A DNA stretch of 17,573 bases from Candidatus Bathyarchaeota archaeon (GTDB taxonomy: Archaea > Thermoproteota > Bathyarchaeia > Bathyarchaeales > Bathycorpusculaceae). The notes under the pieces are model-generated. The model had not been told where the DNA came from. It was given only the letters and a program-made list of their open reading frames with translations, and made no database searches. The stretch lies in contig CAVZKL010000002.1 of the NCBI GenBank assembly GCA_963775895.1, positions 1 to 17,573 on the forward strand, given 5' to 3'. Below are positions 5,557-17,573 of this stretch, one piece after another (the first letter of the stretch is position 1; each line of letters begins with the position of its first letter). A program made the position numbers and the translations under genes.

Positions 5557-5635
5557 CATATTTGGATCCTAATATTCATGATACATTGAAACCGAGGAGG
5601 GGAGGTGCACAATAAGCTTTTTTTCAGCGAATAAA
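5557..5635 (-). repeat. Copy A of the ~80-bp duplicated promoter/leader cassette
   Basis: First 49 nt are identical to 14077-14125; the rest differs by 1 indel and 2 substitutions. Contains minus-strand AAAAAAAGCTTATT (BRE/TATA-like). Confidence 0.95.
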
Positions 5636-5693
5636 ACCTTCGAAACGTTACAGAACGGTTACAAAGAGGAAAAATTGGGAAGGAGAGACTTGA

Positions 5694-9527: not shown

Positions 9528-10475
<948 letters not shown>

Positions 10476-10491: not shown

Positions 10492-11490
10492 TCAGGCTCC
10501 TTCGAAACGGTCAAAAAAGACAAGGGTTCCTGTCGCTTCGCACAAGGGACATTTGCGCAGCAGACCGTACCAGCTTTTCCTGCAATGCACGCAGTATGTG
10601 AGTCTGCGTTCGTAGGTGAAGAAGGCGACTTGATTTTCAGCGAGCTGTTTTGTTATCGTTACAAGTTCGTCTGTTTCAATCTTGGCATCACCGAGTCCGA
10701 TCACGGTGAGGCTTCCGCTTTCGCTCAGTTCGGTGGTTTTTGCGTTGAAAGCCATAGGCTCGGTGAGCTTTCCAGCGCTGAGGGTTGATCTGTTGGTTGT
10801 TGAGTAGAAGGGTTTTTCCCTTGGGCCTGAAAATCTCACTTTTGCGATACCGTACTTCTCGACGTCAGCCTGTGCGAGTCTTTCTCCAGCGTCATCATTG
10901 AATAGCAATGCGGGAGAGACGCGTTTTCCTCGTCTCTTTCCGATCTTGTGAATGTAGTTTGAGACGTTCTGTCCCACTTCTGAGGTGAATGCGAGGGTTT
11001 TCTCTGGGTTTAGGTTTCCTTCACAGAATGCTTCCGCGGCTTCTCTGAGTCCCGCGAGGTTTACTATTCGGGAGCACTTGTCCAATCTGAAGTATTGGTC
11101 GCCGTTCTCGCCTTGCATTATGAAGGGGAGCAGGTTTCGGCCTCGGTGTCTCACGAACGTGTACTTGATTTCTAGGGCTCGGTTTGCCATTTCTGTTTTT
11201 TCTTTCAGGGTCTCGAGGAACTTTGTCTTGTCTTTTCCTGCTTCGTAGGCAACGCGTGGCACGTTGACTGTTACCGTGCCCAGTAACCCCGTGCGCAGAG
11301 TGTCTGTTTCCCAGTCGCCGTCTGGGTCTGGGCTCAGCCGAAAGCCTGTTGGGGAAAAGGTGTCGTGGGTTTGTTCTTTCTTGAGCAGGTTGGCAAACGA
11401 GACGATGCCCGTGTCTGAGGCGAGTTTGTGTGCTTTCAGTAGCAGGGCTCTTGCTCTTTCGTCTGTGAATGTTTCGGGACGAATCTTCAC
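10492..11490 (-). CDS. nrdD: C-terminal half of an NrdD-like (class III RNR fold) protein, catalytic motifs degenerate
   Basis: GLLGTVTVNVPRVAYEA, GLREA, ERLAQADVEKYG and CVHC-x10-CPLC match the NrdD pattern. TGFR replaces GCR and there is no RxxGY. Confidence 0.8.
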   Translation of the reverse strand: MKIRPETFTDERARALLLKAHKLASDTGIVSFANLLKKEQTHDTFSPTGFRLSPDPDGDWETDTLRTGLLGTVTVNVPRVAYEAGKDKTKFLETLKEKTEMANRALEIKYTFVRHRGRNLLPFIMQGENGDQYFRLDKCSRIVNLAGLREAAEAFCEGNLNPEKTLAFTSEVGQNVSNYIHKIGKRRGKRVSPALLFNDDAGERLAQADVEKYGIAKVRFSGPREKPFYSTTNRSTLSAGKLTEPMAFNAKTTELSESGSLTVIGLGDAKIETDELVTITKQLAENQVAFFTYERRLTYCVHCRKSWYGLLRKCPLCEATGTLVFFDRFEGA

Positions 11491-12695
11491 GGTGAGGTTT
11501 GGCCGGTCAGCGGTTTGTGTGTTCTTTCTTCATCGAGAGCTTCGAGCAATAGGCTTGCTAGCAGTTGGGCTTGTTCTTTGAAGTCTTTGTACGTTCCGAC
11601 GCGTTTTCCGAGGGCGCCGATTGCGGGTTTCTTTTCTAGGAAGCTGGGTGGAGCCAGTTCCAGGCCGAGTGAGACGTTTGTGTGTCGGGTCAGGTTGGAT
11701 GTGAAGAGGCGTAGTAGCTGTTTGATTTTGGTGGGTTCGACGTTTTTGGCGAAGGGGGACAGGAAGACGTTGAAGTAGTCGACTGTTTGTGTGCTGTCGA
11801 CTTCTCTGGCGGTGTAGAGCAGTGCGTTGAGGGTGAGGTCGATGGCGTGTTCGAGGTCTTGCGGTGGTGGGTACGATTGAAGGTTGGGGTTGATTTCTTC
11901 GAGGTTTAGGCCTTTTTCTATGAAGAATCTGAGGTCGTGCATTATCTCGCTTGGTTTTAGGATCCAGGAGTTTAGGTTGTCGATGTGTAGTGCTCCTGAC
12001 AGGTGTGCGTCTGAGATGTCTCTTGGGAGGATGTTCAGCAGCGTGTATTCTTTGAACACGGTTTGTCCGGCGAGTTCTTGTACTGAGGGTGTTGCTTGGA
12101 GGTTTTTGTTCTTTGTTTCGATTAGAGTGGTTACGTCGTGGACGGGGACGCCGAGTCTTGTGAGTTTGTGTCGGTAGTCTTCGAGGCCGTTTTCTATCAG
12201 GATGGTGTTTACGACTTCTCGTACGAGGGGGGCGGTGAGGTATTTGGTTTTTGAGCGGGTGAGTTGTTTTTCTGCTTCTTTGGCGATTTTTTGTGCGAGT
12301 TCTGCGGGCATCTTGGCTTCTTTTATGAGTGAGTTGGCGATTTTGTTCGTGTCGAATTCTTCGAGTGCGAGACGGCTGGTGCGGACGAGGGTGGTTTTGG
12401 TTTTAAGGGCTTTTTTGTCTATGCGGTCTGCGACGTCGATGACCATTTTGCCGAGTTCGGTGAGGAGGTATTTTCTTGTTTCGACGTCTGTTTCGGCTAG
12501 GTCTGCTTTTAGCAGGAATTTTAGGTGATAGGCGAATCTTCCTGCGTCTCGGCTTGGGTTCATTTTTAGTTGGCTCATGAGTTCTGTGTAGGAGAGGGGG
12601 CCTCTGTCGAAGAGCAGGTTTAGTATTTGCAGTCTCAGGGGTGAGGAGACGGCTTTGAGCACTCTTACTCCTCGCACGCGTTGCGGTGTGGACAT
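11487..12695 (-). CDS. nrdD: ArsR-type HTH + ATP-cone + N-terminal half of NrdD-like fold
   Basis: LKAVSSPLRLQILNLL...YHLKFLLKADL (ArsR wHTH); VRTSRLALEEFDTNKIANSL...LVREVVNTIL (ATP cone); DAHLSGALHI...HDLRFF (NrdD). No Cys in 402 aa. Confidence 0.85.
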   Translation of the reverse strand: MSTPQRVRGVRVLKAVSSPLRLQILNLLFDRGPLSYTELMSQLKMNPSRDAGRFAYHLKFLLKADLAETDVETRKYLLTELGKMVIDVADRIDKKALKTKTTLVRTSRLALEEFDTNKIANSLIKEAKMPAELAQKIAKEAEKQLTRSKTKYLTAPLVREVVNTILIENGLEDYRHKLTRLGVPVHDVTTLIETKNKNLQATPSVQELAGQTVFKEYTLLNILPRDISDAHLSGALHIDNLNSWILKPSEIMHDLRFFIEKGLNLEEINPNLQSYPPPQDLEHAIDLTLNALLYTAREVDSTQTVDYFNVFLSPFAKNVEPTKIKQLLRLFTSNLTRHTNVSLGLELAPPSFLEKKPAIGALGKRVGTYKDFKEQAQLLASLLLEALDEERTHKPLTGQTSP

Positions 12696-12745
12696 CCTTT
12701 CTCGCCAAACCCCTCGTGGTGGTAAGCGTACTATTGGCGGCTTGG

Positions 12746-12753
12746 GTTTAAAG
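12746..12753 (-). promoter_or_regulatory. TATA box for the ArsR-NrdD-like gene
   Basis: CTTTAAAC on the minus strand, about 50 nt upstream of ATG 12695. Confidence 0.45.
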
Positions 12754-12972
12754 CTGTTAGGATTATTTGGGTTTTCTCTTTCGCGCGTGTTAAACGCTTT
12801 AGTCGAGGGTGGACTTTCTGATTTTTGGACAGAAATGTCTGTTGAGTGGTAGCGTGTATATCGGTTTTGGTAAGTAGCTTTATATGTTATAGAAGGGCTG
12901 GAGTATTGTTCTAGAAGATTTGGACAGATGTTTCACACTGAATCGTTTAAATATGTCGTAAGCAGAACTTGA

Positions 12973-13686
12973 ATGGGGTGGGGTTGGGAGCGCGGTTGCG
13001 TTGGCTCTTCCATGTTTTCTTGTCTGTGGGGCGCCCTCCTCTACCTGGTAAGACCCATAGCCTACGTCAGAGGCAGCCTCCTCAGCACGACGGCCACAAC
13101 ACTCTACCAAACCATCGACAGAATAATCAGAGACCTCAACTGCAAAGGCAAACCAATCTATTTTCCACCCTACCCCAAAGGAGCCTACCTTCCTCAACAC
13201 CTGAAGGGCCTCAAGGAAACAGTCACCTTCATACCCCTGGACACCGGCCAGACCGCGCCGTCGATTGAAGAGATGGCCACGAGCAAATTCATAACCAAAA
13301 ACCCCAGAGGAGTAATCCTCTTCCCACCAGGCTCAAGCTTCCTAGACCAGTTTGAAACACTCCTCAGAACCGACATCACAAAAATGAGCCTCGAAGACCT
13401 CTCCACCACCCTACCCCAAATGATAATCGAAAACTTCCAACTCGCCAAAGAAATAGAAATAAAACCAGAAAACAACCAAATCATCCTAAAAATAACCGGC
13501 TCAATCTACAAAAACCTGTACCTCGACCCAAACCTCAAAAGCGTCACACTCCTCGGCGACCCACTCACAAGCGCCATAACCTGCACAATAGCCAAAACCA
13601 CGGGCAAACAAGCCACAATCCAAACCCTACAAATCACACCGGACGCGGAAACAATTCAAGCAACCATCGAACTCAAAGAAGGATAA
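12973..13686 (+). CDS. Conserved-type archaeal hypothetical protein, possibly 5'-truncated or membrane-associated
   Basis: 237-aa ORF, protein-like from LWGALLYLVRP onward; the first ~17 residues are atypical. Confidence 0.72.
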   Translation: MGWGWERGCVGSSMFSCLWGALLYLVRPIAYVRGSLLSTTATTLYQTIDRIIRDLNCKGKPIYFPPYPKGAYLPQHLKGLKETVTFIPLDTGQTAPSIEEMATSKFITKNPRGVILFPPGSSFLDQFETLLRTDITKMSLEDLSTTLPQMIIENFQLAKEIEIKPENNQIILKITGSIYKNLYLDPNLKSVTLLGDPLTSAITCTIAKTTGKQATIQTLQITPDAETIQATIELKEG

Positions 13687-13690
13687 CCCA

Positions 13691-13903
13691 ATGAACCTAC
13701 ACTTCCCACTCTCAGTATCCGACATCGGACTCTGGCTCGCCGTAACCGCCATAATCCTCCTCATAACCTCAGAAATCCTCACCAGCTCAACAGGCCGACT
13801 CGGAAACGTCGCAATACAAAAACAACGCCTCAGACTCGCAGCACTAGCCCTAGGAATAGCATTCATGGCCACAGTCGTCCTACGCATCATCCAACCCACC
13901 TAG
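13691..13903 (+). CDS. Small 2-TM membrane protein
   Basis: 70 aa, two hydrophobic helices, starts 4 nt after the previous stop. Confidence 0.8.
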   Translation: MNLHFPLSVSDIGLWLAVTAIILLITSEILTSSTGRLGNVAIQKQRLRLAALALGIAFMATVVLRIIQPT

Positions 13904-14076
13904 CCCGAAAAACATCAACCCCAGTTCCTACTTTTCACACAGCAACCCAGCCTTCCCAAGTCCAATCGTACGCGGAAAACTCAACCCGCATGAGACCAGA
14001 AGGCCCAGCACAAGCCAAACACACATCCAACCACACTGATCACCAGCCCCAACCAAAGCCCCGCCCACCCCGCGAA

Positions 14077-14156
14077 CATATTTGGATCCTAATATTCATG
14101 ATACATTGAAACCGAGGAGGGGAGGGTACACAATAAGCCTTTTTTCAGCGAATAAA
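14077..14156 (-). repeat. Copy B of the ~80-bp duplicated promoter/leader cassette
   Basis: Near-identical to 5557-5635, same orientation, 8520 bp away. Confidence 0.95.
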
Positions 14157-14222
14157 CCCCCCTTTTCCGACACGCAGATTAATGAGAACATTCATGAGTA
14201 TACAGAGAGAGGGGAAGGCTAC

Positions 14223-14846
14223 TTGCAGAGCAGATGGCAAACGTTAACCGTCCTTCTAGCCATGCTCCTGTCAATCAGCATCCTCTGGTCCCTACAAACC
14301 GCAACCCACACCTCCAGCGTCTCAGCCATCCAAACAGCCGGAACCCTCAAAGTCTACTGGGACCCCAACTGCACCACACAAGTCACCTCCATAGACTGGG
14401 GAAACATGAGCCTAGGACAAACAAAGAACACAAAACTCTACATCAGAAACGAAGCCTCAACCCCAGCGTACCTCATCGCAAGCGACAACAACTGGAACCC
14501 CACAGAAGCCCAGAACTACATCCAATTCGCCTTCGACATCCAAGGCCAAAAAATCCAAGCCGGCCAAGTCAAGAACGTGACCTGCACCCTCACCGTCTCC
14601 TGGGAAACAACCAACATATCCACCTACACCTTCAACATCCTCATCAAAACCCTAGACTCCCTGCCCGGCGACCTCAACAACGACGGCACAGTCAACATCA
14701 AAGACATAGCCATCTTCGTAAAACTCTTCGGCACCACACCAGCCTCACCACAATGGAACCCAAACGCCGACCTCAACGGAAACCTCAAAATAGACATGCG
14801 AGACATAGCCCTAGCCGTACAAGCCTTCGGAAACACAGCATCATAG
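14223..14846 (+). CDS. Secreted protein with C-terminal dockerin-type double Ca-binding domain
   Basis: Signal-like TLTVLLAMLLSISILWSL; PGDLNNDGTVNIKD...WNPNADLNGNLKIDMRD. Start moved to TTG 14223 because 14082-14222 covers repeat copy B. Confidence 0.85.
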   Translation: MQSRWQTLTVLLAMLLSISILWSLQTATHTSSVSAIQTAGTLKVYWDPNCTTQVTSIDWGNMSLGQTKNTKLYIRNEASTPAYLIASDNNWNPTEAQNYIQFAFDIQGQKIQAGQVKNVTCTLTVSWETTNISTYTFNILIKTLDSLPGDLNNDGTVNIKDIAIFVKLFGTTPASPQWNPNADLNGNLKIDMRDIALAVQAFGNTAS

Positions 14847-14987
14847 CACTCTCACAACCGAAAAACAAGCAGGCACGCGCCAGTTGCCGAATCTTGTCCT
14901 CTATGCAGTTTTGCGGAAATCACACAGTGCCACTGTCGCTCTTATTCTTCTATAAGCGTTCGCTTTAAAACAGTCGAACGCAAGATT

Positions 14988-15908
14988 ATGTTATTGGGGA
15001 CCGATGTGCCCATAAATGAAATAGACCTGCTCCTGACCTACAAGTGCAACCTGGAATGTGATCACTGTTTTGTTTTCGGAAGTCCTGACGCAAGAGGAGT
15101 CATGAAACTGTCCGACATAGAGGAGATCCTGAATCAAGCAGAAAAAGTGGGAAGCATCGAATGGATCTACATAGAAGGCGGTGAACCAGTCCTCTACTAT
15201 CCAATCCTCTTGCACGGTCTAAGAGAAGCGAGGAAACGTGGGTTCAAAACAGGGTTCATCACGAACGCCTACTGGGCAACGTCAGTCGAAGACGCGAAGA
15301 AATGGCTCAAACCCATCGCAGAGATAGGCATACAAGACGCGATAATAAGCGATGACCTCTTCCACTACGGAAAAGACGAAGAAAACCTCGCGAGCTACGC
15401 CTTTCAGGCGGGCAAGGAGCTTGGGATACCCGTAAGCAACATCCACATCGAGGATCCAAAGCAGTACATGAAAGAAAAGGAATGGAAGGGAAAACCCGTC
15501 ACGGAGGGCGCAGTGCTCTTCAAGGGAAGGCCCGCCGTGAAGCTCGTTGAAGGATTGCCGAGGAAACCTTGGAAAACGTTCGACAAATGCTTGGACGAGG
15601 ATTTCTCCAATCAGAAACGAGTGCACGTTGATCCTTTCGGATACGTTCATCTGTGCCAAGGAGTAACGATGGGCAACATGAAAAGGACGCCGCTTCACGT
15701 CCTGTTCAAAGAGTTCGACCCGCAAAAACATCCCATATGCGGACCGATCCTGAAAGGAGGCCCGGCTGAACTCGTCAGAACTTACCATGTTCAACATGAA
15801 GAAGGCTACGTTGACGAATGCCACCTGTGCTATTCGACTCGCTTGAAGCTGAGAAAGATGTTCCCTGAGGTTCTTGCACCAGATCAGATGTATGGAACAA
15901 GTAGTTGA
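14988..15908 (+). CDS. Radical SAM protein with C-terminal auxiliary Cys cluster
   Basis: CNLECDHC, EGGEP, ITNAYW; distal C...HVDPFGYVHLCQ...PIC...ECHLC; TTTAAA about 20-25 nt upstream. Confidence 0.92.
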   Translation: MLLGTDVPINEIDLLLTYKCNLECDHCFVFGSPDARGVMKLSDIEEILNQAEKVGSIEWIYIEGGEPVLYYPILLHGLREARKRGFKTGFITNAYWATSVEDAKKWLKPIAEIGIQDAIISDDLFHYGKDEENLASYAFQAGKELGIPVSNIHIEDPKQYMKEKEWKGKPVTEGAVLFKGRPAVKLVEGLPRKPWKTFDKCLDEDFSNQKRVHVDPFGYVHLCQGVTMGNMKRTPLHVLFKEFDPQKHPICGPILKGGPAELVRTYHVQHEEGYVDECHLCYSTRLKLRKMFPEVLAPDQMYGTSS

Positions 15909-16003: not shown

Positions 16004-17573
16004 GTGCATAGAAGGGCTGTTTCCAGAATAATTCTGGCGTTGTTGTTGGCTTATCTGTTTACTTTGCCATTTCAGATTCAGCTTGGCAGAGCAGAGCCAA
16101 ATTTGAATCGATCACGTCTGCCCATCGCCAACGAAGTCCACCTTCCTGTTCCATTCTACTATCAAGAAAAGGACTACTACTGCGGTCCAGTTGCTCTCGA
16201 AATGGTGTTCAATTTCTATGGCGAAAACATATCACAATCTGAGATAGCGTGCGTTGCAAGAAGCATCGGCGACCCCCTGTACGTGACCTACACTGACGAG
16301 CTGAGGAGGGCAGGACACTTCAGCAATATCAGCACTTCAATGGGCGATGAGCTTCCAGCCAACATTTCGGGATACACTCTACGAAAACTGGGCTACGCGG
16401 CGTCTGAAGCGCAAGGCATGGACCTGACAAAACTTAAGAACCTTCTGGACCAAGGCAAGCCACTTGTATTGCTGATGTGGTACAGTAGTTATCACGTTTC
16501 AACTCATTATCGTGTAGTAACCGGCTACAATGACACCCACATTTTTCTGCATGACCCGTGGAATAAACCTCTATGGGGCGGAACATACGGTGGTCCCAAC
16601 ATAGCCTTCAACAACAGCCAGTTCACGGACCTTTGGTCATACTTCAACTATTGGGCTCTCTACGTTTCTCCATGGATGATAAACCTCTCCACACCAGCCT
16701 ACGTTCCTCCCGGAACGCCATTTCAAGTAGAGTCGACGATCACGTATCCCCAAACACTACCGAACGCCTTTTTCACCTATCCCGCCTCTTCATGCAACGC
16801 ATCGATAACCTTTCCTGCTAACCTAAGTCTTGCTCAGGGCGAAAGCCAAAAGAAAACAGTGGGTGCGGGTTTCCTACAAGAAGGAAACAGTTCCAGTTTG
16901 AGCTGGACGTTGGTTGCCAACTCTTCGGTAACTGGAACGATTAGCATAACCACTGAAGGACTGATTTCAGGGTCAGTAGCAGCCAGTCCGAACTATACTG
17001 CTTACAATTACGACGACAGGATAGGTGCAACAGTGAACTTCACCATATATCTGCCTTCGGCATTGCATGACGTAGCCGTGACGAATGCTATTCCTTCCAA
17101 AACTATCGTCGGTCAAGCCTACTGCCTGAACGTAAGCGTCACAATAGCAGACCTGGGAAGCTACGCGGAAGACTTCAACGTAACCGTCTTCGCTAACGAC
17201 ACTGCCATACAGACAAAAAACATAACTCTCACAAACGGAGTTTCAACAAACATCACCCTCGTCTCGAATACCACTGGTCTCGTCTTTGGCAATTACACAG
17301 TGAGTGTCCGTGCAACAGCAGTTCCAGGCGAAACGAACACGGCAAACAACAATTTCACTTGCCCTATTCCAGTTCACGTGGGTGTTCCAGGCGACGTGTC
17401 CAGCACAACTGTTGGAACGTACGACGGAATAACCAATATGAAAGATGTCGCCTACATGATTGCGTTATTCAACGCCAAGCCAAGCTCACCCAACTGGAAC
17501 CCTAATGCGGACGTGAACAACGATGGCATCGTCAACATGAGAGACATCGCCATAGGCATTGCCTACTTCAACA
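16004..17573 (+). CDS. Secreted C39-like cysteine peptidase + CARDB/Ig-like + dockerin (partial, runs off the window; not in the ORF track)
   Basis: Hand translation from GTG 16004 is open to the end: signal peptide, VPFYYQEKDYYCGP...HYRVVTGY...LHDPW, HDVAVT (CARDB-like), PGDV...WNPNADVNNDGIVNMRD. Confidence 0.88.
   Translation, partial: MHRRAVSRIILALLLAYLFTLPFQIQLGRAEPNLNRSRLPIANEVHLPVPFYYQEKDYYCGPVALEMVFNFYGENISQSEIACVARSIGDPLYVTYTDELRRAGHFSNISTSMGDELPANISGYTLRKLGYAASEAQGMDLTKLKNLLDQGKPLVLLMWYSSYHVSTHYRVVTGYNDTHIFLHDPWNKPLWGGTYGGPNIAFNNSQFTDLWSYFNYWALYVSPWMINLSTPAYVPPGTPFQVESTITYPQTLPNAFFTYPASSCNASITFPANLSLAQGESQKKTVGAGFLQEGNSSSLSWTLVANSSVTGTISITTEGLISGSVAASPNYTAYNYDDRIGATVNFTIYLPSALHDVAVTNAIPSKTIVGQAYCLNVSVTIADLGSYAEDFNVTVFANDTAIQTKNITLTNGVSTNITLVSNTTGLVFGNYTVSVRATAVPGETNTANNNFTCPIPVHVGVPGDVSSTTVGTYDGITNMKDVAYMIALFNAKPSSPNWNPNADVNNDGIVNMRDIAIGIAYFN

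Follow-up and report, generated by a model that had tools for sequence, protein, structure and literature searches.

Strand asymmetries in base composition let the history of replication and transcription be read from DNA; those of archaea are weak and little understood. In vertebrate mitochondrial DNA, the heavy strand is G+T-rich via deamination while it is single-stranded (e.g. Faith and Pollock 2003). The regions named GRINS, as defined in the main text of the paper that describes them, are duplicated stretches of more than 500 bp with more than 80% identity in polyketide synthase (PKS) clusters, are tied to gene conversion, and are recognised by correlated GC and TA skews with mean absolute values above 0.15 over more than 500 bp (Nivina et al. 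2021; PMC8256042). The word 'archaea' is absent from that main text, and the supplements may list non-PKS or archaeal cases (PMC8256042). Here we describe a comparable asymmetry on a chromosomal contig of Candidatus Bathyarchaeota archaeon (GenBank assembly GCA_963775895.1, contig CAVZKL010000002.1, called C2 below). The window analysed is this whole contig of 17,573 bp, and it belongs to the genome bin G000 (1.77 Mb in 28 contigs, 88.8% complete, 3.5% contamination). At position 13,031 the plus strand flips from G+T-rich to A+C-rich. We propose that this flip is probably the junction of two independent one-strand mutation zones of opposed orientation, for which we infer the mechanism from the sequence; many such zones in the genome are situated downstream of a promoter-like repeat of 83 bp.

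Keto skew (G+T minus A+C) was followed as a cumulative walk along the complete contig. The walk peaks at 13,031, in agreement with the abrupt flip that an initial annotation of this DNA had placed at ~13,030, and the four hand counts given there were exact on recount: G+T makes up 49 of 60 nucleotides at 12241-12300 and 47 of 60 at 12971-13030, and A+C 47 of 60 at 13561-13620 and 27 of 30 at 14041-14070. The arm skews are beyond chance. A count of 47 of 60 in one class has a binomial P of 1.2e-5 and is attained by just 0.17% of the genome's 1,770,004 60-nt windows. Across 600-bp windows of the whole genome the standard deviation of keto skew is 0.10, and the two arms attain +0.43 and -0.44.

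The left zone (10500-13031, oriented on the minus strand) has a G+T-rich plus strand and an A+C-rich minus strand. It is strongest at 11,500-13,030, with a keto skew of +0.39 over 11491-12695, and fades toward pyrB, with +0.19 over 10500-11490. The divergent intergenic region at 12696-13011, which has no similarity elsewhere in the genome, shares the polarity of this zone (+0.30). In the right zone (13031-14900, plus strand) the plus strand is A+C-rich, with a keto skew of -0.38 over 13012-13686 and -0.39 over 14223-14846. The non-coding plus-strand stretch at 13904-14076 reaches -0.53 (A.34, C.43, G.13, T.10), the strongest value in the window. GC skew of +0.2 to +0.46 goes together with AT skew of -0.3 to -0.53 over 11,400-13,050, and mirror values are found over 13,050-14,850. 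The baseline is regained ~2-2.5 kb from the flip on each side, by about 10,500 and 14,900, and 14988-15908 has a keto skew of -0.08. The fading with distance that the initial annotation described holds for the left arm, toward pyrB; the right arm instead stops abruptly at ~14,850-14,900, just past a dockerin gene. The G/T leaning of pyrB (9528-10475, plus strand; OTCace_N and OTCace domains) noted there is also borne out, with values of +0.10/+0.30/+0.18 at third positions compared with -0.12 to +0.09 in nine same-genus orthologues. The window thus has the intense, correlated GC and TA skews by which the main text defines GRINS and, as in the GRINS described there, the sign changes within 1 kb, third positions are skewed, and G goes with T against C with A (PMC8256042).

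All arm genes in the window have an A+C-rich coding strand, so that taken by itself the window points to a coding effect. Genes elsewhere contradict this. Nine G+T-rich open reading frames (ORFs) in antisense orientation to a copy of the 83-bp repeat were tested, and eight of them match Pfam families (histone deacetylase, aIF5A, CofE, Sua5, PCMT, GT2, PAP2 and peptidase A4). Since these real genes, antisense in their zones, have G+T-rich coding strands, coding bias is no explanation; the skew disregards gene direction. The initial annotation had judged coding bias alone to be insufficient and had pointed to skew in non-coding DNA, and both statements stand, with the skew spanning genes of both orientations and the non-coding stretches at 12696-13011 and 13904-14076. 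The case that it named as a refutation, a skew following the coding strand genome-wide, is contradicted by the same eight families. The arm genes of the window would agree with selected codon usage or mRNA composition, or with an origin from a foreign donor whose codons end in A/C. Either is scarcely credible given the G+T-rich coding strands of antisense housekeeping genes, the stronger skew of non-coding DNA, and the synteny of skewed genes with unskewed orthologues. Horizontal acquisition was rejected on similar grounds: the synteny at pyrB is kept, the deacetylase locus is collinear with that of the relative G002, and antisense genes carry the opposite bias.

The direction of change could be read from two genes. 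In the NrdD-like gene of the left arm, which is sense to its zone, 72 changes polarised at sites conserved in 11 orthologues include 17 G>A and 18 T>C, compared with 4 C>T and 7 A>G. In the deacetylase gene, antisense to its zone, 65 changes polarised at sites conserved in eight same-genus orthologues include 16 C>T and 24 A>G, compared with 2 G>A and 2 T>C. The third positions of the deacetylase gene are A.02, C.09, G.48 and T.40, while the third-position skew (k3) of the eight orthologues is -0.08 to +0.23. Fourfold degenerate sites of typical genes are even (A.25, C.26, G.24, T.25), and those of skewed genes are A.35, C.45, G.12 and T.08; the N-terminal ORF of the NrdD-like gene goes further, with A.33, C.51, G.12 and T.03. 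Since the ratio of purines to pyrimidines is kept at these sites, only transitions are at work. The depletion of T and G at fourfold sites is about equal with every neighbouring base, and silent sites, replacement sites and non-coding DNA are all affected. One strand gained C>T and A>G, and the other is A+C-rich for this reason. The deamination-type signature suggested by the initial annotation is therefore recovered, in that C>T and A>G fall on the G+T-rich strand, as deamination of that strand would give.

This pattern resembles that of vertebrate mitochondrial DNA. There, too, C>T and A>G accumulate on one strand without a shift in the balance of purines and pyrimidines, two of the four bases almost vanish from silent sites, and the effect is graded by position. 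Unlike the mitochondrial case, the asymmetry described here is confined to kilobase islands in a cellular chromosome, dozens per genome, many of them headed by a repeated promoter-like element, and its polarity is opposite to that expected from promoter-primed strand displacement, as reasoned from the mitochondrial model.

Both arms have a copy elsewhere in the genome. The left arm is found on contig C16 with 93-95% identity (90-95% with 8 kb of flank), and no mirror arm lies beyond it there. On C16 the 83-bp repeat stands just upstream of the NrdD-like copy and is oriented into the gene. The homology of C2 and C16 stops at ~12,762, and where C16 has the repeat, C2 has 265 bp of unrelated, equally skewed DNA. 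On the other side of the flip, an 853-bp duplicated segment (13027-13879, plus strand) is 96.4% identical to C23:60931-60079, and this counterpart is the middle of a 5-kb zone with a single polarity throughout. The left end of the copy, 13,027, coincides with the skew flip at 13,031; the flip is abrupt because the C23-derived copy begins at this duplication breakpoint. We therefore consider it likely, though by no means certain, that the flip is a breakpoint between two independently skewed, oppositely oriented zones. From 14,077 onward a copy of the repeat continues the right-zone polarity to ~14,900.

The gene at the junction (13012-13686, plus strand; listed as an ORF at 12973-13686, 237 amino acids) has no Pfam family. 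Its paralogue, the C23 gene, has an open frame of 324 codons and includes an N-terminal part that is missing from the window gene. The initial annotation had placed the flip inside this plus-strand ORF. The listed ORF does span the flip, but the flip lies at its 5' end and not in its interior, because homology to the paralogue starts at ~13,021-13,027 and an in-frame ATG is located at 13,012. A hydrophobic ORF of 70 amino acids without Pfam family (13691-13903, plus strand) also lies within the copy of C23.

An assembly chimera or a sequencing artefact might be suspected in a metagenome bin with 3.5% contamination, in which C2 shares segments with both C16 and C23. We give this next to no weight, since the skewed sequence is found in contigs of four runs from four studies, a contig of run X1 (which may be the source sample) spans 12783-13073, and zones also occur inside long contigs. 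In a contig of run X6, the sequence leftward of 13027 continues as the C23 version. When C2 is compared to C16 and C23, the skewed parts are 4-5% diverged and the unskewed flanks 5-10%, and the differences between copies are only mildly directional. The skewed parts are not more diverged than their flanks, and so there is no sign of unusually fast current mutation in either arm.

The initial annotation had interpreted the flip as a fork-convergence site or as a recurrent double-strand break with deaminated, resected 3' overhangs. It had rightly noted that the polarity is opposite to the origin signature: the sign at 13,031 is terminus-like, with the plus strand G+T-rich on the left and A+C-rich on the right as at the GC-skew switch of a terminus, and the deamination-type changes on the G+T-rich strand would suit exposed overhangs. 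A terminus, however, separates skews of replichore scale, while the skew here extends only 2-2.5 kb to either side and is repeated at many places in the genome. With zones defined as at least 500 bp of absolute keto skew of at least 0.27 in 400-bp windows, and strong zones as those with a peak of at least 0.34, the peak count proposed as a check in the initial annotation gave 78 zones covering 85,856 bp in G000, of which 44 are strong (64,531 bp); the weakest of the 78 may be tails of the ordinary distribution. Position 13,030 is thus no unique terminus or break site. Only about 2 of the 78 zones form abutting mirror pairs like that at 13,031, the two arms exist separately on C16 and C23, each without a mirror partner, and the flip coincides with a duplication breakpoint. 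Moreover, the sign of the skew does not change at the repeats, unlike at a two-sided resected break. A single convergence site or recurrent break at 13,030 is therefore very improbable. After masking of the zones, 10-kb bins follow gene-strand bias and give no clear V-shaped origin/terminus pattern.

The zones are 1-5 kb long, and 73 of the 78 are single-copy; the other 5 have a counterpart elsewhere that is 500 bp or longer with an identity of 80% or higher, compared with 10 of 400 control regions. The duplication that defines GRINS in their main-text description is therefore rare here, and none lies in a modular gene, though both arms of the window have copies. The zones also differ from the GRINS described there in that they cross gene boundaries and that their polarity follows an outside element (PMC8256042).

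This element, the 83-bp promoter-like repeat, is present in 36 copies in G000, which are 88-100% identical to the copy at 14,077 (91-100% with one exception); nhmmer found no diverged copies beyond these 36. It contains a near-palindrome of 18 bp around GGATCC, the halves of which are TATA-like, as well as a purine run and seven consecutive T. The T run is present in 28 copies, and in the other 8 a small hairpin holding the run (within 14110-14150 in the copy at 14,077) is inverted, giving a run of A. In this A form, an ATG lies past the purine run at ribosome-binding distance. Rfam has no family matching the repeat or the arms.

The downstream kilobase has a keto skew of -0.2 or lower on the repeat sense strand at 22 of 35 testable copies, and of +0.2 or higher at none of the 35. 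The background chance of such a downstream skew is 0.025, which corresponds to a binomial P of 5e-27. In the metaprofile, the skew sets in ~300 nt before the repeat and is largest 0.3-1 kb downstream, with the 22 strong copies reaching -0.35 to -0.38; it is back at zero by ~3.5-4 kb and has an identical sign on either side of the repeat. The same sign on both sides and a long tail on one side argue for a polar event and not for a two-ended break. Conversely, 26 of the 78 zones have a repeat of the same sense within 1.5 kb of their 5' edge. The copy in the right zone (14077-14159, plus strand) is itself unskewed (keto skew -0.06). A second copy in the window (5557-5638, plus strand, 95% identity) heads a weak zone, with -0.11 in the downstream 1 kb.

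Repeats on the same contig are arranged non-randomly. Of 17 neighbouring pairs, 10 are convergent, all 4.3-26 kb apart, whereas none of 13 pairs within 30 kb is divergent (P ~5e-5 under random orientation); such pairs occur on contigs C4, C7, C10, C14, C16, C17, C18, C21 and C27. The possibility that pairs are the ends of mobile islands was rejected, as the genes enclosed by four convergent pairs look like ordinary housekeeping genes on reading of their translations, without a family search.

Comparison with related genomes places the zones in an evolutionary context. The NrdD-like orthologues of 11 relatives are unskewed and all still adjoin pyrB. The first 46 nt of the repeat are present in 9 of 10 same-genus genomes with 3-13 matches each, and the repeat stands before genes in relatives. 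Among 20 short-form repeats from G001 and G005, one has a skewed downstream kilobase, and the mean is -0.02. G002 has a short form at the orthologous site, before the same row of ABC-transporter and deacetylase genes, and shows no skew there; the collinear deacetylase locus of G000 has the 83-bp form and a skew of -0.22 to -0.45 over 5 kb. In G009, a zone of its own covers the NrdD-like locus from ~1.5 kb upstream of the gene, without such a repeat. Among other Bathyarchaeia, the third positions of pyrB range from -0.62 to +0.37, which suggests from base composition that both polarities of zone occur commonly across the class.

Runs of 22-24 A/C-only bases, numbering 0-187 per genome among relatives, were considered as a proxy for zones but not relied on, because the matches in the complete same-genus genome G001 are mostly short low-complexity motifs. 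An A/C-only motif of CCCAAA units recurs on its contig C1 (e.g. at 75746, 2033874 and 2271788). G000 contains 263 tracts of (GC)4 or longer, by a rough estimate several-fold above a uniform 8-mer frequency. Such a tract lies within 400 nt upstream of 6 of the 36 repeats (2.1 expected), but zones contain no excess of them (16, with 19.7 expected), and the tracts were dropped as a zone anchor. Two similar cysteine-rich ORFs with G+T-rich coding strands, C18:99659-100534 and C23:18850-19845, lie inside repeat-less zones.

Several results weigh against the repeat as the cause of the zones. Of 35 repeats, 13 have a weak zone or none, G005 has a long-form-like repeat without a zone, divergence from the consensus is unrelated to zone strength (Spearman 0.02), and the choice between the T-run and the inverted A-run form has no obvious effect on it. 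Zones also exist without the repeat. No repeat is found near the 5' edge of 52 of the 78 zones, the 5' edges of 22 strong repeat-less zones share no common motif, and the left arm is as skewed as its C16 copy although only the latter has the repeat. In view of this arm, the repeat may have arrived later or may have been lost. The repeat might then be a bystander, inserted or converted in at the 5' edge of existing zones in a fixed orientation. Besides the many repeat-less zones and the left-arm skew shared by C2 and C16, the age of the elements speaks for this, since the zones must predate the split of C2 and C16, whereas identity among the repeat copies is 91-100%. The first 46 nt are, however, conserved across the genus, selection could equally explain the high identity, and at two loci the long form was gained together with the zone relative to relatives. 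We regard a bystander role as rather unlikely.

Under the interpretation that we favour, in each zone one strand accumulates C>T and A>G, and the repeat sense strand turns A+C-rich. The left zone of the window would be the zone headed by the repeat on C16, and the right zone would combine a copied piece of another zone with the zone belonging to the 14,077 repeat. The repeat-antisense strand would recurrently become single-stranded and be deaminated, or be resynthesised with G-T wobble errors. Forks may meet the repeat, or its transcription complex, head-on and stall; resection of the nascent lagging strand after the stall would then expose the lagging-strand template over kilobases. Head-on fork arrest is the simplest fit to the polarity and shape of the zones and our leading guess. 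In the Bacillus work of Sankar and colleagues from 2016, deamination is said to occur on the template strand at single promoter bases. The zones described here differ by extending over kilobases, and their fork direction is a guess. Head-on collisions have been described, with reference to Sankar et al. 2016, as driving adenine deamination at conserved promoter bases in a passage of PMC9280176. When the template strand is damaged in this way, the sense strand acquires T>C, and T>C is also the strongest component of the zones.

The only Orc1/Cdc6 gene found in the bin (C18:25,749-27,020) lies inside a zone (k3 +0.33), and the zone to its right reaches a repeat at C18 28,975 that points back at the gene. 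This polarity would fit forks moving from the locus toward the repeat, in a single case with a guessed fork direction. A stretch of 60-62% A+T just upstream of the gene makes this locus (C18:25250-27020) a candidate origin. Both members have strong zones in five convergent repeat pairs, which weighs against fork arrest, as a head-on model then needs forks moving outward from inside every pair.

Three pictures fit the polarity: a head-on stall, a widened nick in the sense strand, and error-prone resynthesis of the template strand. In contrast, canonical transcription-associated damage, RNA-primed or rolling-circle displacement, and break-induced synthesis started at the repeat would all give the opposite polarity, because the sense strand is exposed or renewed. 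In the second picture, the sense strand is nicked site-specifically at the repeat and the nick grows into a gap, extending a long way 5'-3' but only a short way 3'-5'; the exposed antisense strand is deaminated before filling. This would account for the same-sign skew, the short upstream tail of ~300 nt and the long downstream tail of ~3.5 kb. It would also suit convergent pairs with both members active, since no fork direction has to be assumed. The repeat-less zones are left unexplained by it, and no candidate nickase was found: the 89%-complete genome yielded neither an IS200-type transposase nor a TnpB above cut-off. A nick-derived gap is in our judgement unlikely, but to be taken seriously.

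Retroelement mutagenesis (of the type of diversity-generating retroelements or by cDNA conversion) was rejected, since RVT_1 (PF00078) was found in none of 41 genomes of 63-99% completeness, G000 among them. Repair and mobile-element genes were also considered as the cause and set aside; endonuclease V is present in 37 of the 41 genomes, including G000.

The third picture attributes the zones to transcription from the repeat, either through error-prone refilling of template-strand patches or through a deaminase acting on the DNA strand of RNA:DNA hybrids. In its layout, a TATA-like palindrome with a purine run behind it, the repeat resembles the promoters of archaea; it precedes genes in relatives, and the decay downstream is like that of a dropping polymerase density. 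As in the transcription-associated asymmetry of bacteria and mammals, a promoter-like anchor is combined with downstream decay and strand-specific transitions. The polarity is, however, opposite to this canonical asymmetry. In the work of Beletskii and Bhagwat from 1996 and that of Francino and Ochman, it is reportedly the non-template strand that gains T and G, while the repeat sense strand loses both. The skew also begins ~300 nt upstream of the repeat, and antisense genes are rewritten too. A T run is a typical archaeal transcription stop signal; the seven-T run lies ~35 nt past the expected start in 28 of 36 copies, and their zones are not weaker. The flanks of the 24 tRNA genes, a few of which lie at or inside a zone, are unskewed on average, and the missing preference for sequence context is unlike a motif-specific deaminase. 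Transcription as the direct source of the zones therefore appears doubtful, with a small chance of being correct.

The remaining features of the window concern gene content. The NrdD-like gene is convergent with pyrB and is split into two minus-strand ORFs by a frame change at 11487-11490. The N-terminal ORF (11487-12695, 402 amino acids) matches the Pfam families HTH_5, DUF7347 and ATP-cone and positions 2-187 of the NRDD profile, and the C-terminal ORF (10492-11490, 332 amino acids) matches NRDD profile positions 215-530. Contigs of all four sequencing runs compared carry one extra G behind 11,500, 10 nt from the frame change, and the split is for this reason probably an assembly error or a strain variant. 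The C16 copy has two frame changes. In 38 of 40 relatives, the orthologue-level match is a single open frame of 682-802 amino acids; G007 and G017, both ~65% complete, have no such match. The protein combines an N-terminal ArsR-type helix-turn-helix with an ATP-cone and an NrdD domain, and most relatives have in addition a canonical NrdD-like match of about 710-720 amino acids. It terminates shortly past a CxxC...CxxC pair, beyond which no glycyl-radical-like motif was seen on reading (with no motif search made).

The dockerin gene at the right end of the skewed region (14223-14846, plus strand; listed as an ORF at 14082-14846) encodes a secreted protein with a Dockerin_1 domain (E 2e-9). Its start is likely the in-frame TTG at 14223, which is preceded by a purine-rich stretch. 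A second, open-ended plus-strand ORF at 16004-17572 has a peptidase C39-like and a dockerin domain, and the two dockerin proteins hint at a cellulosome-like surface assembly. At 160-237 on the minus strand, aragorn predicts a tRNA-Pro; Rfam has a weak transfer-messenger RNA (tmRNA) match at the same place, with 32 bits compared with a gathering score of 47.

Searches of the literature on Bathyarchaeia and on archaeal strand asymmetry, nucleotide and keto skew, gene conversion, codon usage and adenine deamination found no published description of such zones. A survey of archaeal skew from 2026 presents genome-wide curves, and Bathyarchaeia are unmentioned in the portion available to us (PMC12999951). 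For practical work on this group, the zones distort analyses of codon usage, horizontal transfer and binning, and they create long spurious ORFs on the stop-poor strand. Their effect also reaches the amino-acid make-up of housekeeping proteins, e.g. aIF5A and the deacetylase. Asymmetry of mitochondrial grade is thus confined to oriented kilobase islands in an uncultured archaeon, many of them with a defined anchor. If its cause is polar fork arrest or nicking, the zones would provide a map of these events from sequence alone in organisms that cannot be grown, and a natural case for the unexplained G+T / A+C skews of GRINS. Our broader proposal is tentative, and we hold it to be possible rather than probable: in Bathyarchaeia, a regular polar DNA transaction at promoter-like elements, either fork arrest at a bound or transcribing complex or a site-specific nick, may leave one strand single-stranded over kilobases. 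It would thereby rewrite codons, proteins and spacers one-sidedly and give rise to dozens of hypermutation zones oriented according to its direction, with the elements standing in inward-facing pairs around blocks of 4-26 kb.

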